DNA from: Dehalococcoidia bacterium
Lineage (GTDB): Bacteria > Chloroflexota > Dehalococcoidia > Lucifugimonadales > Australimonadaceae
Assembly (NCBI GenBank): GCA_034422075.1
Contig: DAOUJX010000006.1
Span: 462-64,461 of the forward strand
Direction of reading: 5' to 3'
Length of the DNA stretch: 64,000 bases
Shown here: positions 36,529 through 63,013 of the stretch, in pieces
How positions within the stretch are numbered: the first letter of the stretch is position 1
Layout of the letters: every line of letters starts with the position of its first letter
Made by a program: the position numbers and the translations under genes
The notes under the pieces: generated by a model
What the model saw: the letters and a program-made list of their open reading frames with translations, nothing else
Databases searched by the model: none
Told to the model about the DNA's origin: nothing

Positions 36529-36538
36529 GCGGCGCGGC

Positions 36539-41265: not shown

Positions 41266-42192
41266 TCACCCCGAAAGGCTTAGATCCTTGCGCGCGTACG
41301 TCGTGATGCCGTCCGACCAATCGAAGCGCCGCGCGACCCAGTGCATCGCACGCAGGAGCGGCGCGGAAGGGCCCAGGAGCCGCGTCTTGTGCAGGAGGCG
41401 TACCGGCGCGTAGAGCCCCTCGTTGGTATCGTCTGCATCCACCACGCCGGCCAGCGTCGCTGTTTCGGTCACCCGGAACGTTTCGAGCCCGACGTCGGCC
41501 AACATCCGGGTCAGCGTGCGGCGAGAAAAGTAGTAGACGTGCTCTGGCATGCTGTAGTGCCGCCAGCGAGCCCCTATCACCCGAGGCCACAGCCCTTCTA
41601 CGTCGTGCGTTCCCACGATAAGCACCCCGCCTGGCTTCAACAGCCGATGGACCGACCGCAACACGCTCTTGGGGTCCGGCAGGTGCTCGATGGTCAGAAG
41701 CATCGTCACGAGGTCGACGCTGTCGGACGGGAGAGCCACGTCGTCCATGGTGCCGGTGAAGACCTCCAGCTCGAACTCGCGGCGAGCGTATTCCGTCGCG
41801 TACGCAGACACGTCCACGCCGTAGGGCGCCCAGCCTCTCCGGCGCAGCTGGTCTAGCACGATGCCCATGCCGCAGCCGACATCCAGCGCCACGCCAGGCG
41901 TCACACCCTTGAGCGGACGCAGCAGCTCGCCGACCACGAACCGTAGGTGGTTCGTCAGCGCCATGTAGTTGGAGTAGCCAACACGCAGCTTGTCGTATTC
42001 GCTGCCGCCGCCGTAGTAGTCGCCCTCGTTGTAGATTGTCGCAAGCTCCCTTGCAGCCGGACGGGGATTGATGAACACCAAGCGGCACTCGCGGCACCGC
42101 ACGACCGTATAGCCCTTGATAACGTGCAGCGGCGAGTGCTCCTCTGACCCGCACAAATTGCAGGCCACGGTCTCATAGCGCGTCTGCGTCAT
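41266..42192 (-). CDS. Class I SAM-dependent methyltransferase with N-terminal Zn-binding CxxC...CxxC
   Basis: CNLC...CREC, LDVGCGMG, TIEHLPDP, PEHVYYFS. Confidence 0.88.
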   Translation of the reverse strand: MTQTRYETVACNLCGSEEHSPLHVIKGYTVVRCRECRLVFINPRPAARELATIYNEGDYYGGGSEYDKLRVGYSNYMALTNHLRFVVGELLRPLKGVTPGVALDVGCGMGIVLDQLRRRGWAPYGVDVSAYATEYARREFELEVFTGTMDDVALPSDSVDLVTMLLTIEHLPDPKSVLRSVHRLLKPGGVLIVGTHDVEGLWPRVIGARWRHYSMPEHVYYFSRRTLTRMLADVGLETFRVTETATLAGVVDADDTNEGLYAPVRLLHKTRLLGPSAPLLRAMHWVARRFDWSDGITTYARKDLSLSG

Positions 42193-42285
42193 GCGATGCC
42201 TCCGTGTTGCGCTTGCGTTGGCAACGTAGACATGAGTCTAGCCGGCGCTTTCGCCAGAATGAGGAGAAGGGTGGCGTGCGGCGCT

Positions 42286-42299
42286 TGGCGGAGGGAGTG
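42286..42299 (-). other. tRNA 3' fragment (probably Ser), att-like site
   Basis: Minus strand CACTCCCTCCGCCA = acceptor-stem 3' strand + G discriminator + CCA; no T-loop or 5' half present. Confidence 0.55.
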
Positions 42300-42630
42300 T
42301 CATCCGCACTACAGCTGGTTTGGGCGTGAACTGGAAGCTTATTGGCCTCTTATCCCACAATTCATCCCACAGCTTCGGCTTGGTGAGACCGGCTAGAGGG
42401 AAAACCAGTCAAAGTACCAGCCGTGATGCCAGGTTCGATAGATGGTACCCACGACTACAACTCATTGGTATCCGGCTCAGTTACCTAGCGTCCCCAAACG
42501 CAACCCACGCGCGTTCGAATTCAGCACGGTGGGCCGAAGTGTACTGAACTGCGAACGCTTCGCTGGGGGGGGGGGGCTGCAACAAGTCGGACGGCCGACC
42601 CAAGTAGAGAGCAAGGCTCCGGCTGCCTCG

Positions 42631-43593
42631 CTAAAGCAGAATCCTCTCACTAATTTGCGTGCCGTTAGCATTTTCAAAAATAATGTCGTTCACTGCTGAA
42701 AGAGGTATGTCCCCCGCCTCGTATCTTTTGATGACCTCCTCGACTTCAGTTGGAGTATACAGGCCGCGGGCGGTTACGCGGGCTTTGAAGTCGCACCTCT
42801 CCCCTGCGATAGCTAATACCTGCTGTAGCGCCTTTTCAGCGCGTTCCCTCATTGACGACCTGAAGTGGAGGAATCGAAGTTCTCGCCAGTAGAAGTAATA
42901 GTCGCCCAGATTACGGTTTTCCCCGTAGTAGATTTCCCGAGCTGCCCACCCTATCGGAAGCGTGGCTTGCAGGATGCGAAGCCTTTGGGTCCGCGTGGCT
43001 TCACTAAAGTCAAACGCAGGTGTATTCCTGCGTTGCCCAGTCATCTTTTCCATGGCCCACTGGGGCATTAGGTTATCGTTAACATCGACCTCAACCAGGT
43101 CTTCGACTAACCTCTTGAGTAATCCGCTGGGATATTTTTCAGGAAGGTAAACATGAACCATGCATTTGTCATCTAGCTCAACCGTCTCGAGGTGCGGGTA
43201 GTTCGGCGATCCTGGCGATTCTGCGGTAGGTATCTCCTGGATCAGGTTGCCGTTTGTTGTTTTTCTCACGCCGTGGACGAGTACCGGTCTGAAAGGCAGC
43301 CCATCTCGGTCGTCGGGTGTGAATACCACTTCCAGCCACGCCTCGTGTTCTGTCAGGAGCGTGGTTGCCACAGAGCTAACAAAGCTGTCCGTCCCGCGTC
43401 CGTTATCCCACAGTGAGAGGGCCTTCTTGATCTGACTGCCGGATATTCCTTGGGCTGACAACTCGTACGCACCTCCCATGTCACGATGTGGGACAATGTG
43501 GAGATTGAAGTCCTCTAGGAGGAGGAACGTTTGGGTTGAATGATGCCATATCCCTGGTTCGCGTGGAAACCAACGTGAAGTACGGCTTGTCAT
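42631..43593 (-). CDS. Hypothetical 320-aa protein, possible phage-portal-like fold
   Basis: Long open frame with ATGA overlap to the upstream gene; segment pattern recalls HK97-type portals (see findings); unverified. Confidence 0.6.
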   Translation of the reverse strand: MTSRTSRWFPREPGIWHHSTQTFLLLEDFNLHIVPHRDMGGAYELSAQGISGSQIKKALSLWDNGRGTDSFVSSVATTLLTEHEAWLEVVFTPDDRDGLPFRPVLVHGVRKTTNGNLIQEIPTAESPGSPNYPHLETVELDDKCMVHVYLPEKYPSGLLKRLVEDLVEVDVNDNLMPQWAMEKMTGQRRNTPAFDFSEATRTQRLRILQATLPIGWAAREIYYGENRNLGDYYFYWRELRFLHFRSSMRERAEKALQQVLAIAGERCDFKARVTARGLYTPTEVEEVIKRYEAGDIPLSAVNDIIFENANGTQISERILL

Positions 43594-46193
43594 GAGAGGC
43601 CGTCCTGCGTGTCGTCGAAAACGGTCTCTGCGGCTTCGTCATTCCCGTTGTCATTCTGTGCAGTCATAGAGTCCTTCTTCTCGAAATAGTGTCGTAGGCT
43701 ACGGCGGTTTCTCAGGGTATCCTCTGCTTCTCCACTAAGTGGTCCGATTATCTCTGCAGCGAAAATAGTGCGAGGTTTCAGAAATATTGACCGCAATTGT
43801 TCAGTTACACCAAGCATCTTGATGAGTGGTGGCGCATTCCAGGCAGGCTGCTCTTCAACGAAAGGAATGAATTCGGGAGCCGCAAATCCAGCCTCAACAA
43901 TTTTGCCAGTTAGGTGGATTTCCCAATCAGTCCTCGCTACATCCCTTGGTGAGATATTCAGCGAGGTATAGCCATCTTTCAGTTCTAGCCAATCCAAGAT
44001 CCGCCTTGCGGCCTGGTCTGGTTGAGGAAACGACTGGATACGGTTTATCCAAGCTTGGCGGATAGGGATGTCCGACTGGTCGCCCCGAAGCGTCGCGTAT
44101 ATGATTGCTAGTCCAGAGAGCTCAAGGATATCAACGGTTGGGTCCAAGATGGAGGCATTCACTTGGTGGGTTGGGGCCTGATAGGTTGAGAGTACGTGGT
44201 TCTGCAAGACAAGGCTGGCGGACAGGGCCTTAGGGAAGACCGCCTTAACCAAGGCGACATCTCCGGTCGCAATCGCTTCCTCTGTGTGGTGAATGAGGAT
44301 AAATGAGGCTTCACCAAATAGGTCTGGTTCGGACTTTGTTTGGTCCGGTCGAAGCTGTGTAAGGGCCTCGGCGATTCGCTGAAGGACTTCTGTTCTGCAG
44401 GTTTTCACAAGCTGGCCTATCTCTTCGAATTCCTCGGTCTCTTGCCGGTCGCCTCCCACACGCAGAGTTTCAAGGGCATCTGCTGCTTGAGGTAGGGCGC
44501 CAGCGATGAGCTGGACTTTCACGAGAGCTTGAAGGGCTTGTGACCCTGCCATGGCGTTGACTTCTGGCGACAGACCCGTAGAGGTTGGCTTGAGAAAGCT
44601 ATCTAGATGCTTGGGGAGCTCCTTGGCGAACTCTCGAAGTGAGAAGATACACACGTTCGCCAAGGCAAACCTTAGATACCAGTCAGGAGTCCCGCGGCGT
44701 CCCTGAATGTCTTGCTCCGCTTTAACTTCGCTTAGTAACTGCTGAGCGGCCTTCCACACGCGGTCAGAGCCACGGACTCGGACTGTATTCGTGGTCCTGT
44801 GGTCCCACTTGGTATCATTGACGACCGCCTTAATCACATCCGGCCAGTCGATAATAGCTTCTCGCCATCCCAAGAGGAGACTTGTCAGAAACAGAGGAGG
44901 CGCTGCAGCTGCAGCGACCGCCGCAGGGTTCTCTACCTCAATGCTCCAGCAGCGGTCTCTAACAATGGCTGAAAATGCGATGGCATCATCAATGCGGTAG
45001 TTTTTCGCCAAGATGTGAGCCGTCGTCGCAACTTGGTTTGTGATTCGGAGGACCGAGTTTCGATCATTCGCGTCAACGCAAGCCTCTAGAGCGGTTGAGG
45101 CAACCTCCGCCGACCGCCTTTCGAGCCAGCTAGTCGAAGGCTCCAAACGGGCCTGAAGCGGGGTTGAAGTCTGCAGTGCCATAGAAGTCTCTGAATGGCT
45201 GGCTTCTACCCACTTTGGGTAAACGGGTTCTCGAATGAACCACTCGCTAGTCGGAGCCAGCAAGTGTTTCCTCTGAGCATAGTGTTGAACGAGGGCAAGA
45301 AGCTTTTCGACCATATCAACAAGGCGTTCTCGGTCAACTGAACCACGGGAGCTAGTCAAGCCTATGAGTTCTGCCAAGACTAGCAATGCTCCATTTGCTT
45401 CTAGAGAAGCAACTCGTAACACTGCTTCGTTTTTGCCTAGTCCCTCCGAGCCGAGTCGGTCAATTGCTCTATACAGTGCCAGTAGCGGCACCCGGCCAAG
45501 CACAATCGGGTCGAATAGATTGAAAGCACCAATAGCGAGTCGAAAGAATGCCCAGCCACTGAATACGACCAAAAGACCGTAGCCGGCCACTGTGAAGTAT
45601 CCGTACGGTATCCCCAAGCTCTGCAGCAAAATAAGCGATAGGCCAGCGCCAATGGCTATGCCAACTGACTTTAGGTACAATCCTACACTGGGACTTCCAA
45701 GCACCAACTCTCTTACATTAGCTGAGACGTTGCTGTACGATTGGCCTAATACGATGCTTACGCTAGCGAGGTAAAATCCCAAGAGACTCGCCGAGACTTG
45801 GACCGCTAGAGTTGGGAATGTCCCTAGTGGTGGAATCGGCTCTTCTGACGGAATGAGATTAGGCCAAAAGTACTGGGCCAGAAGAAACTCTGTTAGTAGG
45901 AGAGTGGCGAAGAGGGTAGCTCCAATGAGGAAAGCGCGAATTAGCAAAAAGAAAGAACTTCTGATTATTCCTATATCGCGCCAGAAGAAATCAACAAGAG
46001 AGCCAATACGGTATCTCTGTGCGATGATCCGGAGTCTGCCAGAAGCGGCCCTCTCTCGATTGAGCCAGTAGTCCTCCGTTGACTGCTCTCTTACTCGGCG
46101 ACCCAGATTGCGAGCCTTAGAGCCGAAAGGCCAGCGGCACTCTGCTCTAGCCTCTTTCAGAATGGCCATGTATTCCCGAAACACCGTTTTCAT
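43590..46193 (-). CDS. Hypothetical 867-aa protein, N-terminal 4-TM (DUF2254-like) region + large helical cytoplasmic region
   Basis: Four hydrophobic segments within residues ~80-230, remainder soluble and Ala/Leu/Glu-rich; no catalytic motif recognised. Confidence 0.7.
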   Translation of the reverse strand: MKTVFREYMAILKEARAECRWPFGSKARNLGRRVREQSTEDYWLNRERAASGRLRIIAQRYRIGSLVDFFWRDIGIIRSSFFLLIRAFLIGATLFATLLLTEFLLAQYFWPNLIPSEEPIPPLGTFPTLAVQVSASLLGFYLASVSIVLGQSYSNVSANVRELVLGSPSVGLYLKSVGIAIGAGLSLILLQSLGIPYGYFTVAGYGLLVVFSGWAFFRLAIGAFNLFDPIVLGRVPLLALYRAIDRLGSEGLGKNEAVLRVASLEANGALLVLAELIGLTSSRGSVDRERLVDMVEKLLALVQHYAQRKHLLAPTSEWFIREPVYPKWVEASHSETSMALQTSTPLQARLEPSTSWLERRSAEVASTALEACVDANDRNSVLRITNQVATTAHILAKNYRIDDAIAFSAIVRDRCWSIEVENPAAVAAAAAPPLFLTSLLLGWREAIIDWPDVIKAVVNDTKWDHRTTNTVRVRGSDRVWKAAQQLLSEVKAEQDIQGRRGTPDWYLRFALANVCIFSLREFAKELPKHLDSFLKPTSTGLSPEVNAMAGSQALQALVKVQLIAGALPQAADALETLRVGGDRQETEEFEEIGQLVKTCRTEVLQRIAEALTQLRPDQTKSEPDLFGEASFILIHHTEEAIATGDVALVKAVFPKALSASLVLQNHVLSTYQAPTHQVNASILDPTVDILELSGLAIIYATLRGDQSDIPIRQAWINRIQSFPQPDQAARRILDWLELKDGYTSLNISPRDVARTDWEIHLTGKIVEAGFAAPEFIPFVEEQPAWNAPPLIKMLGVTEQLRSIFLKPRTIFAAEIIGPLSGEAEDTLRNRRSLRHYFEKKDSMTAQNDNGNDEAAETVFDDTQDGLS

Positions 46194-47785: not shown

Positions 47786-50644
47786 TCACTTGGATCTGTG
47801 CTCGCGTTCCACTGGAATGTCCTTGGTGTACCGGCACGGTGGGTTGGCAAAGTACTCGGTGCAGCCCCAGAAGGGGCCATGCGTACCATCTATCACCCGT
47901 AGGACGCCCAAGCCGCAACGAGGACAGACGATGGGAGGACGACGACAAGCTTGATTGGTACATGAGGCTACTCGCCCTCCGACCAGTGCGTAGCCGACAT
48001 TGCAGTTCGGGCAGCGGGGCGCACGGTGATCACATCTATAGTTGGAGCAAATGAGATGCCTTGGGTTCTGTGATGGGTCGGGGTGCAAGCGACCCTTGAA
48101 ACAGCGGGGGCACTCCGGCGCAAGCTCCCCGATCTGGCGCAACTCGTCGGACTCCTTCAGCAACTCCGTCACAAACGTGGATGGGCGCACCGGATCCGTC
48201 ACCAGGTAGGCACCGATTCGTGCCCGGGTCATCGCCACGTAGAGGAGACGGCGCTCTTCCGCGAACGGGTACGCTCCCCCGGAAACCGGGGGCAACACGA
48301 GGTCCAGCAGTGGATCGTCCTCTACCTTGGAGGGAAAACCCCAACGACCGTCGTTGAGGTCGAGCACGATCACGTAGTCCGCCTCACGGCCCTTCGCCCC
48401 ATGGACGGTGCTGAACTCCACTTTTGGCGACGCTCCCTGTGGTGACCTGGGAAGCTCGTCCCAGCGTTGACGGTAGCGGCCAAGCACCAAGACGGCCTGC
48501 TGGCCTCGTGCCTTTGCCTTGATGTCCGACAAAGCCTGCGCCACCCCGCCTGCCGAATCGGGGTCGACGACGACGGCGATGCCCTCATCTTCGGCTTCGC
48601 TCGCGGGCAGTAACGGTCGCTGGGTCTGCTCCGGGTTCCGCTTCACGAACGCAGTTGAAGGGCCGAGAATCCCTTCGGCGAACCGGAAGGTCTGGCTCAA
48701 TGCCCGCAGCTCCACGTGGCCAAGCAGATTGCCGCAATCACGCAGGAGAGCAACGTCGCTCCCCGCGAATCTGTAAATCGACTGCCAGTCGTCTCCAACC
48801 AGGAAGTAGGCGATGTCCTGACCCTTCAGGGCTTGCAGTAGGGCCATCCGCCCCGCGGATATGTCTTGGAACTCGTCGACCAACACATATCGGTACTTGA
48901 GCTTCCACCGGCCCTCGCGGATGTGCCCAACGGCGAGGTTGATGAGGTCATGGAAGTCCAGTTCATCCTCATCCGCGAGCAGCTTTTGATAGCGGGTACG
49001 CACCTGCTCAAAGACATCCAGGAACCTCTGGTTGCGCCAATGGTCTCCGGTCTGTACGGCGCGTGTGCGCAGCGTGGCGAGGGATAGGCTGGCACCCTTG
49101 ACGTGATCCAAGAATTTCGCCAGCAGTTCTGTTAGCCATGACACCCGCTCGCTCCCCAGTCGTTTGACCAGCGTCTGAGCAGGCACGCGCTCGAATGCGA
49201 CGCCTTCATCCTCAAGCTGAGCACGCAACTCCGAGAAGAGGCGCCCTTGTGAGTGTTGCCAACTGTACGTCTCTATCAACCTTGAGCCAAATTGCTTATG
49301 AATGCCCCTCTTCCACCAGACGCCTTCGAGGTATCCACCCCAACCCGCCGGAGGCAACCCCATCTCGTCCAGCGCGAAGTGCTCGATGTAGATGCCGTAG
49401 GCGGACAGGAAGAAGTCCGGCTGGTACTGGCGGCGTTCCCGCGTCGCGGTCTTGTACTCGTATCGTCTCTCGTACTCGAACTCGATGCCGTACTCCGTGA
49501 GATAGTTGGCAATGGCCAACTCCTCGAAGCTCTTCACGAGGTCTCCGCTCAGCGTCCGCAGCTCGACGTTCCGGACGTACTGTTCGTACTCGTCAGGCGT
49601 TGCAAAGTCGAAGACCGATCGGTACGGAGCATGGTGATAGGCGATGAAGTCGATCACGGCCTTCGACTGCTCTGGGTCGTTGAGGAGCTCTTCGATAATG
49701 GTGGCGAAGGCACGCCTAGACACCATTTCGTCCGTCGCGAACTTGGAAATGCTGGGGGCGACCTCGGACTGGGCTATGACGCGGCGCCCGAAACTGTGGA
49801 AGGTGTGGACGTGCGCCGCCGAGAGGTCCCCTTTGAGCCGTCCTCTTATCTCGGCGACTGCTTTGCGGTTGAACGCCAGGACCAGCACTTCGTCGGGGGA
49901 GACGCCCTGGTTGCGAACGAGGTGGGCGACTCTCCCGACGATGACCGAGGTTTTGCCCGTTCCCGCACCCGCCAGTACGAGGGTCACGTCCTCGTCAGTG
50001 GCGACAGCTTCGGCCTGTTCGTTCGTTAGGGGGTTCTGCAGCGTCTCTAGCGCGACTGTTTGCACAACAGGGGCGCTCTTCGAAGTGAAGAGGCTGTTCG
50101 CACGCCTCCTCGCTTTCTCAAACTCCTCGACTGGTTCCAGAGCTGCAAGTCGCCCGGCCGCCTCTGCCGCTTCTTGGTCAAGTCGCCCTCGGATAAGCCC
50201 TCTGCACTCCTGCAGCACCGGCGCGAGTGCCTCGTGAAGCCTTTTGGAGTCGCTATACCGGGCGTAGCGGTCACCGGCGAAGTGTCGGCGCAGTCGTTCG
50301 TCAAGCTGCTTCAGCCGAGGGCTCAGCGCCTTGGCGACTCGGCCTGCTCTCTCAATCGCCCCATCCCTGACCCATGCTGCTCCCTTCGCGTCAAGGCCTC
50401 CGACTGAGTGCTCTGTTCCGTCCCCGAGGCGAATGGTCAACCGGTGCCAGAACCACGAGGGTCGAACCGTGATCGAGTCGATGGCTCCTACAGAAACCGT
50501 ACGGGTCCCACCACCTGAGATTCCATCGAAGTGAAGAGTATCCCTGATCAGCGATACCCGCGTTGGCCCAGCAGCGAACAGACGATGGAGACGGGCGCTC
50601 TCGGCGGTAATGTGCTTATGGGGTTCGATGCCTACTTCAGCCAT
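47786..50644 (-). CDS. UvrD-family (helicase IV-like) helicase with inserted PD-(D/E)xK-like segment and C-terminal Zn ribbons
   Basis: AGAGTGKT, VDEFQD, VGDDWQSIYRFAG, TFRF, TVHGAKGREAD, EERRLLYVAMTRAR; YQPDFFL..IYIEHF insert; several CxxC at C terminus. Confidence 0.9.
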   Translation of the reverse strand: MAEVGIEPHKHITAESARLHRLFAAGPTRVSLIRDTLHFDGISGGGTRTVSVGAIDSITVRPSWFWHRLTIRLGDGTEHSVGGLDAKGAAWVRDGAIERAGRVAKALSPRLKQLDERLRRHFAGDRYARYSDSKRLHEALAPVLQECRGLIRGRLDQEAAEAAGRLAALEPVEEFEKARRRANSLFTSKSAPVVQTVALETLQNPLTNEQAEAVATDEDVTLVLAGAGTGKTSVIVGRVAHLVRNQGVSPDEVLVLAFNRKAVAEIRGRLKGDLSAAHVHTFHSFGRRVIAQSEVAPSISKFATDEMVSRRAFATIIEELLNDPEQSKAVIDFIAYHHAPYRSVFDFATPDEYEQYVRNVELRTLSGDLVKSFEELAIANYLTEYGIEFEYERRYEYKTATRERRQYQPDFFLSAYGIYIEHFALDEMGLPPAGWGGYLEGVWWKRGIHKQFGSRLIETYSWQHSQGRLFSELRAQLEDEGVAFERVPAQTLVKRLGSERVSWLTELLAKFLDHVKGASLSLATLRTRAVQTGDHWRNQRFLDVFEQVRTRYQKLLADEDELDFHDLINLAVGHIREGRWKLKYRYVLVDEFQDISAGRMALLQALKGQDIAYFLVGDDWQSIYRFAGSDVALLRDCGNLLGHVELRALSQTFRFAEGILGPSTAFVKRNPEQTQRPLLPASEAEDEGIAVVVDPDSAGGVAQALSDIKAKARGQQAVLVLGRYRQRWDELPRSPQGASPKVEFSTVHGAKGREADYVIVLDLNDGRWGFPSKVEDDPLLDLVLPPVSGGAYPFAEERRLLYVAMTRARIGAYLVTDPVRPSTFVTELLKESDELRQIGELAPECPRCFKGRLHPDPSQNPRHLICSNYRCDHRAPRCPNCNVGYALVGGRVASCTNQACRRPPIVCPRCGLGVLRVIDGTHGPFWGCTEYFANPPCRYTKDIPVEREHRSK

Positions 50645-50705: not shown

Positions 50706-51158
50706 TTACACGAACAGCCTCCACGTGAGCAGGCCGACGACCACCAGCAGCACGAGGATCACCACGCGGGCGATGTTGAACAGTTGGTTGGTCACCTTGT
50801 GCTCGTCAATCTCCTTCTCGTGCGCCCACTCGAGCTCAAGAAGGGCCCGCCGGCCGGCTGAGGCGGCCTCCTTGGCCTCATCCCGTTCCTGCTCCAACTC
50901 GGACGCTCTGTGCTCCGCCTCGGACAGCTTCCGCTCCAACTCCCGCACGGTCCGCTCAAGCTCGTCCTGCCTGACGATTGCCCGGTCCAGCAGCTCCTCG
51001 TCGGTGATGTAATTCCCCACCATGCGCACGTAGACCCGACGCCCCTCCCTACGGACCTCGACCTCTCCCGTCCTGATCTTCCGGTCGAGGGTGGACAGGG
51101 AGACCTCCAGTTCCTCCGCTGCATCCGCTTTTGTCACCCACCGGACGCGTTCATTCAT
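50706..51158 (-). CDS. Excisionase/MerR-like HTH + coiled coil + C-terminal TM helix
   Basis: WVTKADAAEELEVSLSTLDRKIRTG, heptad-rich middle, VVILVLLVVVGLLTWRLFV tail; start ATG 51158 preferred. Confidence 0.75.
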   Translation of the reverse strand: MNERVRWVTKADAAEELEVSLSTLDRKIRTGEVEVRREGRRVYVRMVGNYITDEELLDRAIVRQDELERTVRELERKLSEAEHRASELEQERDEAKEAASAGRRALLELEWAHEKEIDEHKVTNQLFNIARVVILVLLVVVGLLTWRLFV

Positions 51159-51179
51159 AGCTATTCCCTCTCCTACCGG

Positions 51180-51297
51180 CTGACACGTCAGGGTTGCAAA
51201 AGTGCGATCGAGATCTTCCCCAGAGCCGCCATTCAGTTTAGTCCAGGTTCGCATTTTGGAGCCTGACACGTCGCAACGTGTCAGGGTGATACGTCAG
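51180..51297. repeat. TGACACGT motif array with 10-bp inverted repeat
   Basis: TGACACGTCAG 51181-51191; cctgacacgt-cgca-acgtgtcagg 51262-51285; TGATACGTCAG 51287-51297. Confidence 0.7.
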
Positions 51298-51438: not shown

Positions 51439-53166
51439 CTACAGGACAGCCGCCCCCTCTATAGGACTGGATTCCATCCGGTGGAAGAGCGAGTCCCACC
51501 GGTAGGCCCGCAGGCCGGACAGCGCCAGGCGGGGAGACTCCGGTTCCCACAACGGCCGCCACGACCTTCGAAGTATCCCCGTGCGGTCCAGCACGGGGAT
51601 ACTCGATACCAGGATGGGCAGCGACATCCGGTTCATCCGGTCGACGGTGCGCACGTAGGTGTCCTCCACCTCCTCGGTACCCACCACGAACAGCGTGACG
51701 GGGAACGGCGGCTGGTCCTCGCCCGGTTCGTTCGACCAGTAGTAGCTTCTGTAGGGAAGCAGGCGGGCGATAACCCCCTGCGGATGCCGGGCGCGCAACT
51801 CATGCTCGAGGTAGAACGGTATCCCAAGTCCATCGGCGGTCATCTGACCCACGGCGTCGGGGGCGATGGCGGAGCGGCCCCAGTTGTAGGCCCGGTCGGA
51901 ACGGGCGGTGGGAACGGACCACTCCAGTGCAGAACGCGGGGCGTCTCTGGTCTCTGCCTTAAGCTGCGAGAGGAACCAAGTGATGCCGTCGGCGTGCTTC
52001 GTCTGCCGCGCCCACGTCTCGATCCGGTGGCCCACGTGACGGCGACGGCCCTGTCTGTCGGTGGTGAGGGCTGTGCTCCAGGCACCCCGCGTGGTCGGCA
52101 GCTCGGCGCGGTCCCGGTGCGTGACGTAGCGGATGCCCTCGTTGGACAGCGTGTAGCGGCTGTCCCCGCGTTTGCCCCGGCGCTCGATGAGGCCCCAGGT
52201 CTTCACAAGGCCGTGCAGAATCTGGCTGATTCTTCCTTTGGAAACACCAAGCCATAGAGCCAGGTGCTCGCGGGGGATCATCGGGTAGTCGGTGATGAGG
52301 TCCAGCGTGCGCTTCTCCGAAGGCGTGAGGCCGAAGGCCGGCGAGGCCTGCATCATCCGCTCGGGCCGGGGTAGGGAGGCGCGTTTGCGCTCTGGCGATG
52401 CCGCTCGACTTCCTCCGCCCCCGCTACGGCTCGCCTCGGCGATGACGCCCTCCAATGTGCGGTACCGCCCACCAATCAGGAACCAGGTACTCAGCCAGAC
52501 GTGGCCGCCTCGTCTCTCCAGCGCCTCCCGCGACTCCACGGCGACGAAGCAGCCCCGGAGGTCCCGCTGCTCGCAGAACTGCGCCGTCAACCGCTGCTCC
52601 CAGACGCTGGGAACGAGGACCAGGACCATGCCTGGGCGGCGCCGGTAGTCGTACTCCGCTATGGCCCTCAGCCGGTCGTAGAGCGACCTTCGGCGCAGGG
52701 CCAGACCCTGACGCACTACGCCGAAGCTGTCGCCGTCGTGCAGGGTGATGGTGGCGTCGAAGCGGCCACGGCGATGGAACTCCACGCGAGTGCGCAGCCG
52801 CCCGTCACCGCCGGGGGAAAGTGATGAGGCCAGGCGATAGACGGAAGCCGCGGCGTCCATCCGGCGTAACAGCAGCGTCAGCCACTCCCTCGACATCGGG
52901 TAGGCCCGCACGAAGTCCGAGGGCGTGTCGAAGCCCAGGACCTCAGCGGCCTGCCTGATGCCCTTCGCCGTCAGGCAGTATCGACCGCTCGGCGGCAGGT
53001 GGGCGGTGCCGTGGATGACACGCTCGACTACGCCGACATCCAGCAGGCCGGTCAGGTGGCGGTGGACGGTCGAGTGCGGCTCGCCGAGGATGAGCGCCAG
53101 CTCCGTCGATTCGACGAACGGCATCCGGCTGAGGAAATGAAGCAACTGTCGGTCGGTGAGGCGCAT
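51439..53166 (-). CDS. Replication-relaxation family protein, tandem duplicated domain
   Basis: Two wHTH-led halves (LLHFLSRMPFV...YCLTAKG; TLDLITDYPMI...YTLSNEG); second half has HADGITWF, IAPDAVG, FYLEHE. Confidence 0.72.
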   Translation of the reverse strand: MRLTDRQLLHFLSRMPFVESTELALILGEPHSTVHRHLTGLLDVGVVERVIHGTAHLPPSGRYCLTAKGIRQAAEVLGFDTPSDFVRAYPMSREWLTLLLRRMDAAASVYRLASSLSPGGDGRLRTRVEFHRRGRFDATITLHDGDSFGVVRQGLALRRRSLYDRLRAIAEYDYRRRPGMVLVLVPSVWEQRLTAQFCEQRDLRGCFVAVESREALERRGGHVWLSTWFLIGGRYRTLEGVIAEASRSGGGGSRAASPERKRASLPRPERMMQASPAFGLTPSEKRTLDLITDYPMIPREHLALWLGVSKGRISQILHGLVKTWGLIERRGKRGDSRYTLSNEGIRYVTHRDRAELPTTRGAWSTALTTDRQGRRRHVGHRIETWARQTKHADGITWFLSQLKAETRDAPRSALEWSVPTARSDRAYNWGRSAIAPDAVGQMTADGLGIPFYLEHELRARHPQGVIARLLPYRSYYWSNEPGEDQPPFPVTLFVVGTEEVEDTYVRTVDRMNRMSLPILVSSIPVLDRTGILRRSWRPLWEPESPRLALSGLRAYRWDSLFHRMESSPIEGAAVL

Positions 53167-53384: not shown

Positions 53385-53684
53385 CTACCTCGCTATGTCG
53401 TGCTGTCTCCAGTCGGGCACGTGCGCCGTCATGAGCGCCTTGAAGAGTTTCCCGTGGTTTGGAACTCGCAGGTGTAGTAACTCGTGTGCGATTACAAAGT
53501 TCTGGAATTCAACATCTTGATTGCCCAGATCGGCCGCGAGAGTGATCGTTCCAGCCGTCGAGCAGGAGCCCCACTTGCGGTTCATGCCCTGGACTCGCAC
53601 GCGCGGTGCGGGTACGTGGAGGCGCTCCGCCCAATGCTCTACCCGTTGCCGCAGTGCCTCCGAACTGTCGTCACGCCTCGGCAT
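53385..53684 (-). CDS. YgjP/DUF45-like Zn metallopeptidase (short form)
   Basis: [21 protein letters not shown] (HExxH); usual position after hsdR. Confidence 0.88.
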
Positions 53685-56664
53685 CGGCGCCCCCGCCCAG
53701 TAGTATCTCTAGGGTCTGTTCCACGATCCGGCCCCGCTCACGGCTCTCCACCTTCAATAGCGGGTTGTACAGCGAAGTCCTGAGCCGTCGGTGCTCGTCG
53801 GCGTTCACGGCGGCGTTGGGAAAGCGTTCCGCAAGCGCCTGCGCCTCTTCTGCGAACCCTATTGCGCCCACACCAGCGGCTTGGAGGGCAACGTCGTCCT
53901 TCAGCGTCCAGTACACCCCGAACGCTCTTGAAGGAAGTGTGCTGTCTCTCGCGGCGGCGGCGGCGGCTTCCTTGTCTTTGGCAAGAGCCTCAAGCATGTC
54001 CAATGCCGCGAGTCCAGTTGTCGTGCGCTCTTCAAGGTCCTTAAGCACGGACTCTGCGCGTTCCTTGAGAGGCCGCAGCACGGATTCTAGCCCCGGCTCG
54101 CTCTCTACCTCCGCTTGGAGGCCGCGCACCAGGTTGAATACCTTGGCCTCATCGGAACCGGACTCCTTCCGCATAGCAGCGAGGGTGCGAAGGTCGAAGG
54201 TCACGGATTTGGTCAGGTTGCCCAAGCCATGCATCGCTGCCGACTCTTCCACAAGCCTACGGGTCTTGTGAGCCAGATCCGCCACAAAGTCGGGGCGGTC
54301 GGCGTAGGCGTTGCGGACTACAGCGTAGAGCTGGGTGAGGCGCCTGAAAGTGTCGATGTGGTTGCGCAGCTCAGCCGATGGCGAGAGTATCTCCCAGAGC
54401 GCCTCTATCTCCTTGTAGGCTGAGAAGAGCTTCTTGCGAGCGTTGGGATCGAGGAAGCGCGTGTACACAATCTGCTCCAAGCGTGGGTCTGCGCTTCCTT
54501 CAGCGATGGCATGGGTTGCCTGCGCCCCGGCTACTTGGTCGCCATCCTCGCTGCCGAGATAGGTCGCCTTTGCTTCGGCGATCTTGTCCTGGAAGTCATG
54601 CATCAGCAGGTCAAGGCCCTCGATCACTCCGCTCACGTCGGAGGAATCGAACTGCAGCGCCTTTCTCAGCTCGCGCAGCACGCCCACGAAGTCCACGACA
54701 AGTCCGATGGGCTTGCTGTGACCTTCTCCGTCCACATACGGTCGGTTTACGCGTGCGACGGCTTGAAGCAGTACGTGGTCGCGCATCGGCTTATCCAAGT
54801 ACATGCAGTACAGCAGCGGCGCGTCGAAGCCGGTCAGCAGCTTATCAGTGACGATGAGTAGCTTCGGATCATCGTTCGCCTTCTTGAACATCAGGCGAAC
54901 GTCCTTCTCCCGCTCCTCCGAAAGCTGAAGTCTGGCAACCAGCGGCCGTTCCACAACATCATTGGCGTTCTCCGAGTACACCGGCTCGCTCCACTCGGGC
55001 GGAAGCAGCTTATCTAGTGCCTGCTTGTACTTTGCGCAGGCTTCCCGGTTTACTCCTACCAGGAACGCCTTGTAGCCCATCGGCAAGACGTTCTCCTGGA
55101 AGTGCTGCGCTACGAATGCTGCCACCTTCTCTATCCGGTCGTCGGCGGTGAGGAAAGTGCGCAAGCCTACGGCCCGGTCCAGCACGCGGTTGAGTTCGTC
55201 GATGTCGGTGACGCCTTCCATCTCGGCTAGGGCGAAGAACTCCCGGTCGAGCTGGGCCGCGGGCACAGTCATCTCGCTGGGCGCCATCATGTGCCGGATG
55301 GGGAGGGTAGTCTCGTCCTTGATGGACTCGGCTATCGAATACTTGTCCAGGTAGCCTTGCTCGTCGTCGGCGCCGAAAACCTTGAAGGTGCCCTCCCCGT
55401 GCTCCGTTCGTGCTATCGGCGTACCCGTGAAGCCGACAATGGTCGAGTTGGGCAGCGCGGCCATGAGGTATGTGCCAAGTTCCCTAGCCACGGAGCGGTG
55501 GGCCTCGTCGATGAACACGTAGATGTTGTCGCGGGAGTTGGCGTCCTTCTCGATGCCCTCGAATTTGTGAATCATCGAGATGATCAGTCCTCTCCTATCG
55601 GTAGCGAGCAACTCTCGCAGCGCTTCCTTCGAGCCGGCGCGCCAGATGGCGATGTCCTGCTGCTGCATCTCGCCCAGCAGCCGCTCGACCCAGCCCGCAA
55701 GCTGACCTTCCAGCTCCGTACGGTCCACCACGACCACCACCGTCGGGTTGCGGTACTCCTCCTTGGCCTCTAGAACCAGCCGGGCGGCGGTGAGCAGGGT
55801 GAAGGTTTTGCCTGCTCCCTGCGTGTGCCAGACGAGGCCCCGGCGCTTCACTGGCTCGGCGCAACGCTCGACGATGCGATCCACGGCCCGGCGTTGGTGC
55901 TGCCTTAGCACGGTCTTCCGCATCTCGCCGTCCTCCACGTAGAAGAGGACCCAATCCCTTAGTGTGCGCAGGAAGTCTGTCGGCTCGAAGAAGGACTGGA
56001 CGGCGAAGCGGTAGCTCTCTTCCTGGGTCTCCTTCCACCGGGCCATGAAGCGGCGCGACAGGTTCCAGGTGGCGCCGTACCAGTAGTCGAGCAGGTGTGT
56101 CACGTTGAAGAGCTGTGCCGCGCCCATCAGCTCGGGCGTCTCGACCTCGTAGCGGCGCAGCTGTGTGACGCCCCGCTCGATGGCGTCGGCGTCCGTCGGG
56201 TTCTTGTGCTCGACGATGGCGACCGGTACGCCGTTGACCACGAACATAACGTCGGCGCGGTTGCCCTTGCGGGCCGGCGGCTTGAGCCGCCACTCCCAGG
56301 TCACGTGCAGGACGTTAGTCGACACATCGTCGAAGTCGACCAGTCTGACCTGTCGGTGCCGCTCTTCGGCCTCGTCATACCACTGCCGCTCGCCTCGCAG
56401 CCAGGCCAGCATCTGGCGGTTGCCTTCAATGGTCGGCGGAAGCGCTTGGAGGTTCTCGACCACTGAGCGGATGACGTTGTCCGTCATCCAGGGGTTGAAT
56501 CGGCGGAGTGCCTCCTCGACCTCGCCGCGAAACAGCAGTCCGGCTTCGCCCCCTCGCATAGCTAGGGCATTCTTGGGGGAAAGCGGCGTCCAGCCGACCT
56601 CCGCCGCGTGGCGGATCATCGGGAACTGGACACTGCCTGCTTCGGTTACGTTGAGTTCAGTCAT
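53671..56664 (-). CDS. hsdR: Type I restriction endonuclease subunit R
   Basis: [18 protein letters not shown] nuclease motif, [35 protein letters not shown]. Confidence 0.96.
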
Positions 56665-56768
56665 AGCTTGCTCTTGACACCCTGGGAGTGGGGCCCGTCC
56701 GATAACGCCCCCATCGTGCCCCTATCTCGCCCCCAGTAATGCTGCTTGATGACGCCTATATCTCGCTC

Positions 56769-58196
56769 CTATCGCGCTCCCATCGCACCCCTATCTCGCC
56801 CCCGCCTCCAGCGGGTCAACGGCCCGCGCTTCGTAGACAAGACTAGACCTTGTTTCCTCAACTCCTCCAGCGCCCTCCGTACCTGACGCTCGCTGACGCC
56901 ATGACCCAAACGTGCGCGAACCTCGCGGCGAGTCAAGCCCTCCTCCGCACCGTCTAGCAGGGCAAGAATCGTCTCGCGTCTTCCTTCAGGATCGCTTACG
57001 TCTCTGGTGATAGGCCGAGGGACGCACTGGCTGTGCCGGAATCGCACGGTGACGGCTCCCCCCTCGTCGTCTATCTCCGGGACCGGGAGTCCCGCCCTGC
57101 TCGCCATATCCGCCATCTTGAGCGTTCCGCTGCCCCACTCCTCAATGATCCCGCGACGGTAGAAGGTACGGGCGATCAACGGGTTCCATGGCCGTGACTC
57201 GTGCGGTACGAACAGCTTCTCCGGCGTTAGGCCGAAGTGCAGAGAACCGGAGGAGGTAATCTCCAAGCGGTCGTCGTAGACTGCTATGCCGACCGAACCG
57301 CCTCCAATGGAGTAGTCGCGATGGCACAGAGCGTTCGCTAGCGCCTCTCGTGTGGCCAGAGGTGGATACAGGGGCTCGTCGATGCGCTCGAATCTGCCCT
57401 GCTCGAACCGCCCGGCGATGGGCAGGGTGTCGCGTAGGAAGCGCTCCGCGTTCGTGAGAAGCGTGAACGCGTTGCCGTTGAACTGGCGATTGTCCAGAAA
57501 CTCCTTCCTCTCCGTTCCACGAAAGCGTGCGACTCGCAACAGGCACTGCGGCATCTCAAATTCAAGCCGCTCTGTACTGCCGAACAGCGCCGCTGCAGCC
57601 CGAAGCAGCACGCCGTCGCGCAGAAGCCCGAGCCCGCGCAGCAGGTCGGAGGCCTCGCTGCTTACAGGCTCTTCAAGCCGCCCGCGCCGGACAGCCTCGG
57701 CAACCGTCCGCCGAATCTCCGCCACGTCGAGGTCGTCGATAGACCACCCGGAGGCGGGTTGGTTCTCCCAGCGTTGCTCGCTATGCAGCCGCTCGAAGAG
57801 CACCCGGTTGTACTCTTCGGCGGACATAGCCAGCGTGGTGTTCCCGACGCGGCGGTAGGCGGTGCCACGGTAGCTATATGGCCTTGATGCACCCTGGCCA
57901 GTGCTGACGACGATGATTTCACGGCCATCGTCCGTGGGGAGCCGCTCGATCTCTGGAAACGCCGGGGGATCGATTCTCTGAAGCTCGGCGCTCAACTCCT
58001 CGATAGTGTGCTCGCTGACCTGTTGCCCAGTTGTTACCCCGTCTGGCCTCACGCCGAACAGCACTTGTCCGCCGCGCTGGTTCAGAAAAGCGCACATCGT
58101 CGCGGCAGCCTCCCGGCGCGTCCCTGTCGTCTCCTTGAACTCTAGTGTCTCGGATTCACCGGATGCGGCTAGCGCTGTGATGTGTTCAATGCTCAT
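56769..58196 (-). CDS. Schlafen/AlbA_2 + HATPase_c_4 + HTH protein
   Basis: GESETLEFK..CAFLNQRGG.VLFGV (AlbA_2), REALANALCHRDY, RNPL-like WNPLIARTF, EEWGSG, C-terminal HTH. Confidence 0.88.
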   Translation of the reverse strand: MSIEHITALAASGESETLEFKETTGTRREAAATMCAFLNQRGGQVLFGVRPDGVTTGQQVSEHTIEELSAELQRIDPPAFPEIERLPTDDGREIIVVSTGQGASRPYSYRGTAYRRVGNTTLAMSAEEYNRVLFERLHSEQRWENQPASGWSIDDLDVAEIRRTVAEAVRRGRLEEPVSSEASDLLRGLGLLRDGVLLRAAAALFGSTERLEFEMPQCLLRVARFRGTERKEFLDNRQFNGNAFTLLTNAERFLRDTLPIAGRFEQGRFERIDEPLYPPLATREALANALCHRDYSIGGGSVGIAVYDDRLEITSSGSLHFGLTPEKLFVPHESRPWNPLIARTFYRRGIIEEWGSGTLKMADMASRAGLPVPEIDDEGGAVTVRFRHSQCVPRPITRDVSDPEGRRETILALLDGAEEGLTRREVRARLGHGVSERQVRRALEELRKQGLVLSTKRGPLTRWRRGRDRGAMGAR

Positions 58197-58210
58197 ATGT
58201 GGCGCGCTTC

Positions 58211-59800
58211 CTACCCGAAAATGTCATGCTTCAGTTCCTCGTACACTGCCATTCCAGGCTTGACCAGTGGAGCGAGGGTGTCGCGCATAAATGTCTTAGT
58301 GTCGTTTCCAGGATTTGCAAGGTTCAACATCTGCTTGCAGGCGACGTAAATCTCGCCACTTGCGGGCTTAAGGTCATCTGTGGCGTCGTCCGGCCTCGCG
58401 GTACGGATGCTTTCCTTCATTGAGAGAAGTCCCTCAATCATGCCGCCTTGATCTGTAGATTCTGCGAGGGCGTACAGAACCTGGTCATCAAATAAATAGG
58501 ATTCCAGATTGCGGCGCGAGATCACCCTAACACCAGTCTCCCTCAACTCCGCGACTTCTTCAGGAGACCTGGCGTCTCGGTCAATGAGTCTTAGGACTTC
58601 GGTACCCTGGGTCAGTACCCCAAGTACATATGCGATGCCCCGTTTGTCCTCAACAACTTCCCCAGCGTTCCCACCAGGGACAAATTGTGTCTCGGGCAAC
58701 TCATCCTCGAAAATGCGTTCAAGACAACGCGCATCGTGAGAGTAATTGTTCCCGGCATTCCTGTTCCTCGGCTCGCCTTCACATATCACCACTCGCTCAG
58801 GTGCAACAAGTGCCGCCAAGTCGCCAATTGCAACCTCATAATTGGTGTTCCAGAATACACGGTCTGGGATGGTGGGTTCGATTACCACCGTCTCATCAAA
58901 GTTCCTTCCATCAAAGTCAAGAAACACGACGCTGCCCGGGCTGGTGGCTTCAATGTCTCTCGCTCGGCGCATCATTCCGATAGAGTGTGTCGCCAGCATC
59001 AACTGGCAGCTCTCGGGGACGAGTTCATAGAATACCGACAAGAGTTCAGCCTGTAAGCGTGCATGCATGTGTGCCTCAGGTTCGTCAATGCAAAACATCG
59101 TATCGTCGTAAGCACGCTTTGCCACAACGAAGTCCAGCACCAAGTCGAACACTGCCTTTTCGCCGCCAGATAGGTTCTTGAAGGAGAAACCTTTACTCGC
59201 GCCTTTGGTAAAACGGAATGTCCCATCTTCTAACGGATTCCCAAGGCTATTGAGTTCAATGTCCGGGAAAAGCCTGGAGAAGGCCACTTTGATATCTCCA
59301 ATGACCGATTCTTTGAATGCATCTAGAGTCACTGATCCATCCTCAGGATCAAAGACATCCTCAATTGCCTGACTCACAAGGCGCTGAAAGTTCTTGGCAA
59401 CAGCCCCGTCGTTATCGATCATGCGTGGTGCTCGTATTTCGTTCAGTGGGTCTCCAACTCGTTGGAGATTGTGTACCTGAAACTCAGGATCGTTCCTGTA
59501 AGCCGACCTTATGAAGAAGGATTTCTTAGTATCAGAGACCGGGACATGAAACTCCACTTGGACATCATTCCGCCACTGTTCATGACCAGTGGAGCCAGCT
59601 TTGACGTGGTAATCCGTTTCCCACACCCGATGTTTCCTCGAAGTCCATCCGTGCCACGTAAGAAGCGCATCGAAGAAGGATGACTTGCCACTGCCGTTTG
59701 GTCCGGCAAGCATGATGAGGCGCGCCGTTTGCGGAATACCCTGGAGGGTCAGGTCTGTGAAACGCTTGAAGTCCTTGATAACAGCACTCTTGAATCTCAC
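58211..59800 (-). CDS. ABC-type ATPase fused to TOPRIM (OLD / PARIS AriAB-fusion-like) nuclease
   Basis: GPNGSGKS, LSGGEK, IDEPEAHMH, ATHS; TOPRIM VICEG, LIDRD, RRNLESYL. Confidence 0.85.
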   Translation of the reverse strand: MRFKSAVIKDFKRFTDLTLQGIPQTARLIMLAGPNGSGKSSFFDALLTWHGWTSRKHRVWETDYHVKAGSTGHEQWRNDVQVEFHVPVSDTKKSFFIRSAYRNDPEFQVHNLQRVGDPLNEIRAPRMIDNDGAVAKNFQRLVSQAIEDVFDPEDGSVTLDAFKESVIGDIKVAFSRLFPDIELNSLGNPLEDGTFRFTKGASKGFSFKNLSGGEKAVFDLVLDFVVAKRAYDDTMFCIDEPEAHMHARLQAELLSVFYELVPESCQLMLATHSIGMMRRARDIEATSPGSVVFLDFDGRNFDETVVIEPTIPDRVFWNTNYEVAIGDLAALVAPERVVICEGEPRNRNAGNNYSHDARCLERIFEDELPETQFVPGGNAGEVVEDKRGIAYVLGVLTQGTEVLRLIDRDARSPEEVAELRETGVRVISRRNLESYLFDDQVLYALAESTDQGGMIEGLLSMKESIRTARPDDATDDLKPASGEIYVACKQMLNLANPGNDTKTFMRDTLAPLVKPGMAVYEELKHDIFG

Positions 59801-61095
59801 ACAGGTTCTCCTGTTGGTTTAGGTTGAACAGTGTCCCCACTTCCGTCATCTCGCTTCTCCCCAAGGCAAAACTCCCCCACCCGTACCTCTCCCGTCATCA
59901 ACTTGTGCAGGAGTGTCTTGAACAGCTCCTCCAGCACGGCGCGCTTCCTCCGATGCAGGTCTGTCTTGCGGTCAATAACGTCGAGGATGGCAACGATCTC
60001 TCGCTGCTCATCTATCGGTGGTGTGGGGACCGTCTGCTCTTTGACCATGCGATCGGTCACCGCCGGGTAGCTTGCGCCGGTTTCGATCTCGGCGAGTTGA
60101 TTGACGAACTGGTCACGCTGGACAAGGTAGTAGATGAACCTGTCTACCACCTTCTTCGCGTCACGGCGGAGGACACAGAAAGCAGTCGAACATACATGGT
60201 TGTCCAACTCCTTTGGGACGATGGCGGTGCGAAGCAGCGTTGGTCTTACGGTCGCAAAGATTACATCGTCAGAAAAGATTTGCTTCCTCGCACGGCCAGG
60301 CGCTTCTTTGAGTATGTGTTGGGACGTTGTTTCGATTTGTAGGTAGTCGCGAGAGATAGACGAGACATCCACGTATTCGATTGTCCGGTCACCTTCGGAC
60401 CGCAGATCAACCGAATCAGTGGACTCGCAGAGTGCGCCTAGGGACGATGTCCCCCACCCCAATGGCATCGGTCCGATCTCGGTCTCCTTCTGCGGCTCGC
60501 CCCGGAGGCCACGGGTGAACAGGGTTTGCATCGCAGCGCGCTTCAAGTCCTGTGCGACAGCAACGCTCCGGCCTTGTGCTTTTATCGCTTCGCGTACCTG
60601 ACCGAGTGCAGCACTGATCGCCTGCTGCTCGTCATGCGGCGGCTGGGGCACGTCTAGCCCTGCCAGACGGCTGCGTGACAGGTTCGGTATCGTCGTCTTG
60701 TTGCCCGCACCCTCGAAGATACCGAGCTGTGTAAAAGCGGATTGCAGGAAAAACACATAGAAATGTGGCTCGACGTTGGGATCAATTGGCCGGAGTCGGT
60801 GCAAGTGGTTCTGGAACGACATCGTTTCCACTTCGCCATTCCAGATCGCCGCCCTTCCTATCTCACCGCCCTCGCAGACCAACAGGTCGCCTTGCCTCAG
60901 CAGCTTGGCAGGCAGCTCGTGCCCTGGGATCGACATCTCGTCAATAGACGACAGGTCGACCTCGTCCCAGAGCACGTTGGATGTTCGCAGGAATGGCGTC
61001 TTGTCAAGGCCGTTGCGAGCGGCGGCGGACATCGTCTTGCCCGCGCCTATCTCGAAAAGCTCCCCAAGGGGACGCCATGTCCACGCTTCGCTCAT
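59797..61095 (-). CDS. hsdS: Type I RM specificity subunit S (two TRDs)
   Basis: [49 protein letters not shown]. Confidence 0.95.
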
Positions 61096-62933: not shown

Positions 62934-62939
62934 GTTTGT

Positions 62940-62968: not shown

Positions 62969-63013
62969 CGGCAGTATGCACTAATCCTTGTGTGACGGTG
63001 CGAGAAGGAAGAC

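Follow-up and report, generated by a model that had tools for sequence, protein, structure and literature searches.

Does the 14-nucleotide block at positions 42,286 to 42,299 of contig stretch DAOUJX010000006.1 (assembly GCA_034422075.1, an uncultivated Dehalococcoidia bacterium) mark the edge of an integrated element, and if so, in which gene was the element inserted and what does it carry? The whole 64,000-nucleotide stretch that was analysed is called the window hereafter. A first-pass annotation, made from the letters alone, had read the block as the 3' end of a transfer RNA (tRNA) gene and had proposed that it bounds a genomic island. We consider it very probable that 42286-42299 is the core of attR, the distal attachment-site (att) junction of an island integrated site-specifically in the 3' end of tRNA-Ser(UGA). 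The island is polymorphic for presence and absence within the species, and the attB, attL and attR junctions were all observed, together with conservation of the island arms. The features on the chromosomal side of the junction are the following:

41266..42192, minus strand: S-adenosylmethionine (SAM)-dependent methyltransferase, chromosomal flank outside the island (Pfam Methyltransf_23/11/25; syntenic in L002, L020, L024 and L025).
42193..42285, minus strand: native spacer from the tRNA-Ser 3' end to the methyltransferase start codon, B' side of attB (homologous in L002, L020 and L024).
42286..42299, minus strand: attR core, a 14-bp direct repeat corresponding to the last 14 nt of tRNA-Ser(UGA) (comparison with relatives; exact repeat on scaffold_27).

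On the minus strand, 42299-42286 reads CACTCCCTCCGCCA, and this is the only exact copy in the window. One further match with at most 2 mismatches, at 882-895, equals the chance expectation; none was found inside the island part of the window. The 14-mer spans the end of the T-stem, the 3' strand of the acceptor, G73 and CCA, and its sequence is that of the final 14 nt of the same-species tRNA-Ser(UGA), at the orthologous position upstream of the methyltransferase gene. The same sequence forms the tRNA-Ser 3' end in five relative loci (L002, L020, L021, L022 and L024). With a real tRNA-Ser as query, the best match to the window was these 14 nt alone, with an E-value of 0.015, and no other tRNA fragment was recovered. 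ARAGORN called no tRNA gene anywhere in the 64 kb, and the Rfam scan of the window returned nothing at the gathering score, in agreement with the earlier description of a tRNA end lacking the rest of its tRNA. That description had left the identity at serine, possibly selenocysteine. In the relatives, ARAGORN predicted an 88-nt tRNA-Ser with anticodon tga and a long variable arm; serine was therefore retained and a tRNA-Sec (selC) target was rejected, the anticodon being UGA and not UCA. Taken alone, the 14-mer is weak evidence and its meaning derives from the comparison with relatives.

Species-representative genomes were scanned with the methyltransferase, yielding 17 Dehalococcoidia/SAR202 loci. 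Only the closest of them, L002 (methyltransferase 92% identical), shares the upstream region. It encodes an 88-nt tRNA-Ser(tga), starting with GGAGGGA and ending with ...GGGTTCGAATCCCACTCCCTCCGCCA, 88 nt before the methyltransferase ATG; in the window, the 14-mer lies 94 nt ahead of the corresponding ATG. Upstream of the L002 tRNA are genes for a 607-aa RecB-like/RNase H-like protein, tRNA-Gln, MsrA and L21. We searched for these genes in the window and none was present, the only matches being to paralogous ABC ATPases. L020 displays the tRNA-Ser and the methyltransferase arranged as in L002. In that locus the tRNA-adjacent methyltransferase (1660-2529) is apparently a pseudogene: it has a deletion as well as an in-frame stop, and the gene prediction gives two pieces of 40 and 232 aa. 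Loci L003-L012 (methyltransferase 87-90% identical) have unrelated upstream regions with no nearby tRNA-Ser and no 12-mer core, and were uninformative on the site.

The informative conspecific loci were obtained from the cluster members of the RecB-like protein. On contig_2 of ENA ERZ25072353 (L024/L026), which belongs to the same species, the methyltransferase, tRNA-Ser(UGA) and RecB-like genes are adjacent, and the tRNA, located between the two protein genes, starts with GGAGGGA as in L002 and as the first-pass annotation had anticipated. By blastn, positions 1-9826 of L024 correspond to window positions 32473-42299 with 99.2% identity over 9.8 kb, and the alignment ends exactly at the inner edge of the 14-mer. 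L024 is a precise conspecific empty site. An empty-site genome, the check suggested at the outset, was thus found, and the proposed boundary was placed at 42299, no further.

The occupied site was observed on a single contig in another conspecific assembly, scaffold_27 of ERZ23495130 (L025 on the attR side, L022 on the attL side). Positions 1-12820 of L025 match window positions 29714-42534 at 98.9% identity (12.8 kb), and the junction on the methyltransferase side is the same as in the window. Scaffold_27 carries a single pair of exact 14-bp repeats 22.4 kb apart, the cores lying at record positions 82931 and 105306 and delimiting an island of 22,375 bp. At its far end are a 391-aa tyrosine integrase and then an intact tRNA-Ser, both on the minus strand, with the integrase about 150 nt downstream of the tRNA. 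The three types of junction read as follows: attB (L024), GAATCC-CACTCCCTCCGCCA-AGCGCC; attL (L022), GAATCC-core-TCCCCC; attR (L025 and window), GGATGA-core-AGCGCC. The flanking bases diverge at either end, which limits the direct repeat to exactly 14 bp; the 14-mer of the first-pass annotation is therefore the precise att core. An imperfect inverted repeat (AGTGCGGA ... TCCCCCACT) surrounds the core of the reconstructed attP, but in GC-rich DNA it is too short to be separated from chance.

The layout of scaffold_27 suggests that the tRNA of the window's own island would be located a few kb beyond position 64000. There, the start of hsdM lies 2.6 kb from the tRNA and an HNH gene occupies the place of the CBASS (cyclic-oligonucleotide-based anti-phage signalling system) locus of the window. 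The forecast of an intact tRNA and an integrase on the minus strand past the end of the window was thus borne out in its geometry by scaffold_27, its position "beyond base 64000" being extrapolated for the window itself. The empty site lacks the CBASS cyclase, so that the island is unfinished at the window end; it measures at least 21.7 kb (42300-64000).

In the sequencing sample SRR13587046, Logan contigs L001 and L019 show full identity with the window, and L021 carries the RecB-like gene with an intact tRNA-Ser(UGA), so that a tRNA ending in the 14-mer was found as the first-pass annotation had asked. The contigs recorded for the RecB-like protein P0126 and for the integrase P0131 are both 112,574 nt long. 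The Logan contigs with the RecB-like gene, L021 1-87 and L023 1-87 (from SRR13587046 and SRR13587050), stop exactly at the tRNA-Ser 3' end (...CTCCGCC). A branch of the assembly graph after the tRNA, due to mixed alleles or to several island variants, may be the reason. Unlike these tRNA-side contigs, L001 and L027 cross the attR junction unbroken. Both SRR13587046 short-read contigs break nearby, at a homopolymer that is absent from the related island (L025): L001 starts at window position 42547 and L019 ends at about 42575, within or near the tract, which could be a weak point of sequencing or assembly or a variable tract.

42565..42576, plus strand: G12 homopolymer, about 30 bp past the end of the conserved arm (sequence; contig breaks).

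The island begins with an arm shared by the two occupied sites, which contains the direct repeats noticed in the first-pass annotation:

42300..42534, minus strand: conserved island arm (P arm of attR), 235 bp (blastn with L025 ends at 42534; absent from the empty site L024).
42352..42359, minus strand: repeat 1, TGTGGGAT in tRNA sense, 60 nt before the core, candidate arm-type site (43-nt invariant block, window versus L025/L027).
42364..42371, minus strand: repeat 2, TGTGGGAT, 72 nt before the core and 12 bp from repeat 1, candidate arm-type site (the pair recurs in the P' arm of L022 and L109).

On the plus strand the repeats read ATCCCACA at 42352 and 42364, 12 bp apart. This 8-mer occurs 4 times in the window for 1.1 expected, a count reached by 6 of 100 shuffles. 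In both P arms, that of the window and that of L025, TGTGGGAT lies at -72 and -60 from the core, inside the 43-nt invariant block. The P' arm on the integrase side, which reads TCCCCCACTGTT..., is otherwise unrelated in sequence to the P arm, yet contains the same 8-mer pair with the identical 12-bp spacing. In L022 it comprises an inverted TGCGGGAT at +138, followed by GGTGGGAT at +151 and TGTGGGAT at +163, the two latter forming the direct pair spaced by 12 bp. This cluster is situated just upstream of the annotated integrase start and overlaps it. In the P' arm of L109, a related element described below, the inverted copy is an exact ATCCCACA; the L109 and L022 P' arms are about 85% identical overall, and the 27-nt block holding both direct copies is their only invariant block. 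Altogether, the count is two sites for the P arm and three (one inverted, two direct) for the P' arm. Because the arms are conserved, the motif pair recurs beside the integrase gene and the integrase has an arm-binding domain, the TGTGGGAT copies are most likely arm-type sites, candidates for binding by the integrase N-terminal domain. The resemblance to arm-type sites proposed earlier was in this way strengthened at the sequence level, by conservation in a second island's arm and recurrence beside the integrase gene with the same spacing. The accompanying statement that cargo starts right after the repeats was slightly off, the rest of the 235-bp conserved arm coming first.

The 391-aa integrase of L022 comprises the domains PF13356 (Arm-DNA-bind_3), PF22022 (Phage_int_M) and PF00589 (Phage_integrase). 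The same three-domain P4-type architecture was found on P0131 to P0250. P0131, 94% identical to the L022 integrase, matches PRK09692 with an E-value of 5.9e-43, below the curated cut-off. Its sequence agrees with the tyrosine-recombinase catalytic pattern R...HxxR...H...Y, at R244 (TACRSGE), H329/R332 (HGLRSS), H356 (LAHEV) and Y366 (AAYFRSD), and these residues are invariant in all 6 aligned integrases, as judged by eye on the motif pattern and not by structural alignment. The N-terminus MWDEM is kept in 5 of the 6, P0133 starting at a later Met.

A metagenome scan with the integrase retrieved only relatives of 39-49% identity, which display the tRNA-Ser habit and not the arm motif. In 21 of 50 such loci, a tRNA-Ser precedes the integrase on its own strand by 130-310 nt; in 8 of those that lack a tRNA, the sequence available ahead of the integrase match is shorter than about 330 nt. 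tRNA-Ser is thus found near distant integrases in unrelated metagenomes, and targeting it is therefore an old habit of the clade. Much closer is the integrase of L109, 93% identical, inserted in another genome at tRNA-Ser(GCT), whose 3' end shares CTCCCTCCGCCA, that is, 12 bp of the core. The cargo of L109 (9760-21212) is entirely different and comprises a C5 DNA methylase with Vsr, a DUF87/HerA ATPase with a 711-aa partner, an N6_N4 methylase and an AAA_5 protein. At 6.5 kb inside this island there is a tRNA-Ala(ggc).

These observations can be combined into an ordinary mechanism. The 14 bp of the tRNA 3' end (CACTCCCTCCGCCA) would also be present in the attP of the island, and the P4-type tyrosine integrase encoded at the other island end would exchange strands within the 14-bp identity block or at its edges. 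Integration would rebuild an intact tRNA at attL, beside the integrase gene, and would leave the original 14 nt at attR, joined to the native spacer and the methyltransferase gene. From 42300 rightwards, all DNA would then belong to the island: the 235-bp P arm with its two TGTGGGAT copies, followed by variable, mainly anti-phage cargo. The N-terminal domain of the integrase would bind the P-arm TGTGGGAT sites together with the three copies of the P' arm. The exact position of strand exchange, the binding of the integrase to the repeats and any present mobility of the island are putative.

The DNA on the two sides of the core differs accordingly in content. To the left is ordinary chromosome with open reading frames (ORFs) of rpoC size, a short-chain dehydrogenase/reductase (SDR), a Rieske protein, Yip1, a scramblase and the SAM-methyltransferase. 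Between the Rieske gene and Yip1, the segment 37700-39700 has a GC content of 0.57 and only small unannotated ORFs; it lies outside the island, since it is 99% conserved in conspecific contigs. To the right of the core, GC falls to 0.53 and then varies between 0.53 and 0.66. The cargo seen up to the window end is listed below:

42631..46193, minus strand: overlapping gene pair of 320 and 867 aa, first cargo, GC about 0.53 (also on Logan contig L019).
47054..47692, minus strand: HicB-like antitoxin (47054-47482) and HicA-like toxin (47486-47692) (Pfam HicB_lk_antitox; PHROG toxin 2.1e-6; weak Pfam HicA_toxin).
47786..50644, minus strand: UvrD/helicase IV-like superfamily 1 (SF1) helicase, 952 aa (Pfam UvrD-helicase 4.7e-46; NCBIfam helicase IV 8.7e-103, below cut-off; PADLOC GajB-like).
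50706..51269, minus strand: 187-aa protein with an excisionase-type helix-turn-helix (HTH) (phrog_66 'excisionase and transcriptional regulator' 3.4e-5; Pfam HTH_17 22 bits for a cut-off of 27).
51439..53166, minus strand: 575-aa protein with a winged HTH (MarR/IclR) and Replic_Relax (Pfam MarR_2 8.2e-11, Replic_Relax 2.5e-8).
53385..62981, minus strand: type I restriction-modification (RM) locus with inserted genes (Pfam, PADLOC), made of the six genes that follow.
53385-53684, minus strand: YgjP-like peptidase.
53671-56664, minus strand: hsdR.
56769-58196, minus strand: Schlafen/AlbA_2 protein (AlbA_2-HATPase_c_4).
58211-59800, minus strand: AAA_21 ATPase (Ptu/Ari-like).
59797-61095, minus strand: hsdS.
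61092-62981, minus strand: hsdM with an N-terminal HTH.
63014..63892, plus strand: CBASS-type oligonucleotide cyclase (CD-NTase) (PADLOC Cyclase PDLC00788 3.9e-110; Pfam SMODS weak).

The first gene pair has no match in Pfam, PADLOC, NCBIfam or PHROGs; its 867-aa protein has a long hydrophobic N-terminal region, and the pair could be an undescribed defence system. Between it and HicAB lies an 88-aa ORF with no family match (46333-46599, minus strand). Logan contig L019 ends at window position 46855, where GC rises from 0.53 to 0.60, and this end with its GC shift could correspond to the boundary of a module or to what is left of a gene. The HicA ORF, with 68 aa, is under the default ORF length filter. 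The 187-aa HTH protein is, on weak sequence matches, a candidate recombination directionality factor or regulator. In the RM locus, the AAA_21 ATPase and Schlafen/AlbA_2 genes interrupt the order between hsdS and hsdR, and the XRE-type HTH at the N-terminus of hsdM (residues about 30-64) is an unusual fusion. The CBASS cyclase diverges from hsdM, homology to the related island, which has an HNH endonuclease there, switching at 63026. The rest of the CBASS operon, effector included, presumably lies beyond the window end. Type I hsdR, hsdS and hsdM, a CBASS cyclase, an AAA_21 ATPase, a Schlafen/AlbA protein and HicAB are thus clustered here. A survey of more than 1,300 E. coli strains describes such non-random clustering of anti-phage systems, mapped there as 'defense islands' (PMC10121019). 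As for transfer functions, no type IV secretion system, coupling protein or FtsK-like translocase was found in the window. The putative mobilisation genes present are those of the Replic_Relax protein, the SF1 helicase and the weakly matched HTH_17 protein, a module unseen in the 17.8 kb that was read of the 22.4-kb scaffold_27 island.

This 17.8 kb comprises only RM, ATPase, glycosyltransferase, carbamoyltransferase, IS1595 and HNH genes, the glycosyltransferases, carbamoyltransferase and IS1595 occurring where the window holds the unknown gene pair. Beyond the arm, the cargo of the two islands is entirely different, and homology returns only in the Schlafen gene (80% at the DNA level) and in hsdM (86%). 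What the two have in common is limited to the arms, the integrase and parts of the type I RM locus.

Several points weigh against our interpretation. The core is short, at 14 bp, and the window contains neither an intact tRNA nor, according to the Pfam scans of its proteins, an integrase. The ends of the window's island are apparently on two contigs of one sample, as the contig on record for the exact window methyltransferase measures 86,086 nt and differs from that of 112,574 nt, so that the contiguity of the tRNA-integrase junction with this island is a matter of inference, and a tandem or composite arrangement may exist. The putative mobility genes of the window (helicase, Replic_Relax and HTH_17 proteins) are, like its cargo, not shared with the scaffold_27 island. 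Finally, the TGTGGGAT copy nearest the integrase overlaps the annotated start codon, and its conservation is possibly coding or regulatory. The brevity of the match, with its modest E-value, and the want of a tRNA or integrase in the window would suit a chance match or the decayed scar of a tRNA pseudogene, the boundary being due to a deletion or rearrangement. We find this scarcely credible, because the 14-mer is at the orthologous position with a homologous spacer downstream, because it recurs as an exact direct repeat around a related island on a single conspecific contig with tRNA and integrase at the opposite end, and because the empty site L024 is precise to the base. It is also unlikely that the junction is a relic, in an island that has become fixed or is a composite of accreted elements, with the tRNA-side integrase belonging to a different, more proximal element. 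The separate contigs of the two ends would fit such a history, as would the heterogeneous GC (0.53 to 0.66), the Logan contig break with GC shift at 46855, and the precedent of tandem islands at one t(m)RNA gene in Dehalococcoides (PMC3146451). Against it, the window's island part holds no second core within 2 mismatches and no other tRNA fragment, the scaffold_27 island has its single 14-bp repeat pair, and from the conspecific empty site it follows that the unit as a whole was gained or lost recently.

Two further alternatives accept the attR junction and concern what surrounds it. The element might be a prophage or a P4-like phage satellite and not a non-viral defence island or integrative mobilisable element: its integrase is P4-type (PRK09692-like), a PHROG excisionase profile matches weakly, the island part beyond 64000 is outside the view, and anti-phage hotspots in P4-like satellites are reported in PMC9122126. 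We consider this improbable, as scans against Pfam, PHROGs and NCBIfam detected no capsid, portal, terminase, tail or satellite-specific gene among about 20 island proteins, and the part read of the scaffold_27 island is likewise without such genes. The TGTGGGAT/ATCCCACA repeats, for their part, might be operators regulating int or sites for an excisionase or host factor, or might owe their conservation to recent divergence of the arms. This explanation is possible, though doubtful. Over roughly their first 90 nt, the arms of the window and of L025 hardly differ, so that conservation there tells little, and the +163 copy overlaps the annotated int start ATG TGG GAT GAG, the resulting MWDEM being kept in most of the aligned integrases. 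Yet the later start of P0133 indicates that the motif need not be coding, the 8-mer pair has its 12-bp spacing in P and P' arms that are otherwise unrelated, it falls in the sole invariant 27-nt block of a P' arm about 85% identical between elements at different tRNA-Ser genes, and the integrase possesses the PF13356 arm-binding domain. We thus retain the interpretation of 42286-42299 as the attR core of an island whose repeats are most likely arm-type sites.

The island is of the classical tRNA-targeted type, with a P4-type integrase, defence cargo and an ordinary mechanism. Like other tRNA-targeted islands with P4-type integrases, which include many enterobacterial pathogenicity and defence islands, it is inserted in a tRNA 3' end, has its integrase, as seen on scaffold_27, by the rebuilt tRNA and a short repeat at the far boundary, carries variable cargo and is present or absent depending on the strain. 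It differs from them in its uncultivated Dehalococcoidia host, its 14-bp core and the use of a second isoacceptor by a relative integrase (93%), its mobility being putative. In attachment sites of the phage lambda type, the core lies between P and P' arms that contain arm-type Int sites. Here, similarly, short motifs are repeated in both arms away from the core, and PF13356 gives the integrase an arm-binding domain of its own at the N-terminus. Particular to this element are the motif sequence, the spacing and the distances, together with the inversion of one P' site; as far as visible, it is not a phage.

Within the same bacterial class, the ssrA islands of Dehalococcoides mccartyi use a transfer-messenger RNA target, a 20-bp repeat and serine recombinases (DsiB, a CcrB homologue), and carry reductive dehalogenase genes (McMurdie et al. 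2011, PMC3146451). They resemble the present island in targeting the 3' end of a small structured-RNA gene, in their far-boundary repeat and in a conserved integration module beside variable cargo. With a tRNA-Ser target, a 14-bp repeat, a tyrosine integrase and anti-phage cargo, the present element works similarly and is not of that family. The P4-like satellite defence hotspots, as PMC9122126 presents them, likewise pair a P4-family integrase with swappable anti-phage cargo; among the proteins scanned here, however, there was no Psu, Delta, Sid, alpha primase or phage gene.

The left boundary of the island is fixed to the base, at 42299/42300, and its target can be named as tRNA-Ser(UGA). 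In annotating these metagenome-assembled genomes, the core chromosome (to 42299) can be separated from accessory DNA, and the island junction explains the assembly break at this place. A full attB/attL/attR set is provided for a mobile-element family in an uncultivated lineage whose mobile elements are little known, and the defined integrase with its att pair is a possible genetic tool. The value of the finding resides mainly in sound annotation, in pointing to the uncharacterised cargo pair beside attR, and in showing that near-identical integrases use two tRNA-Ser isoacceptors. Conceivably, though with low probability, one integrase lineage (at least 93% amino-acid identity) with portable arms (235-bp P, about 150-bp P', five TGTGGGAT-type sites) and a 12-14-bp core common to at least two tRNA-Ser isoacceptor genes (UGA and GCT) could seed several interchangeable defence-island hotspots per genome among uncultivated Dehalococcoidia and swap cargo sets between them, the first cargo pair possibly being a new anti-phage system.

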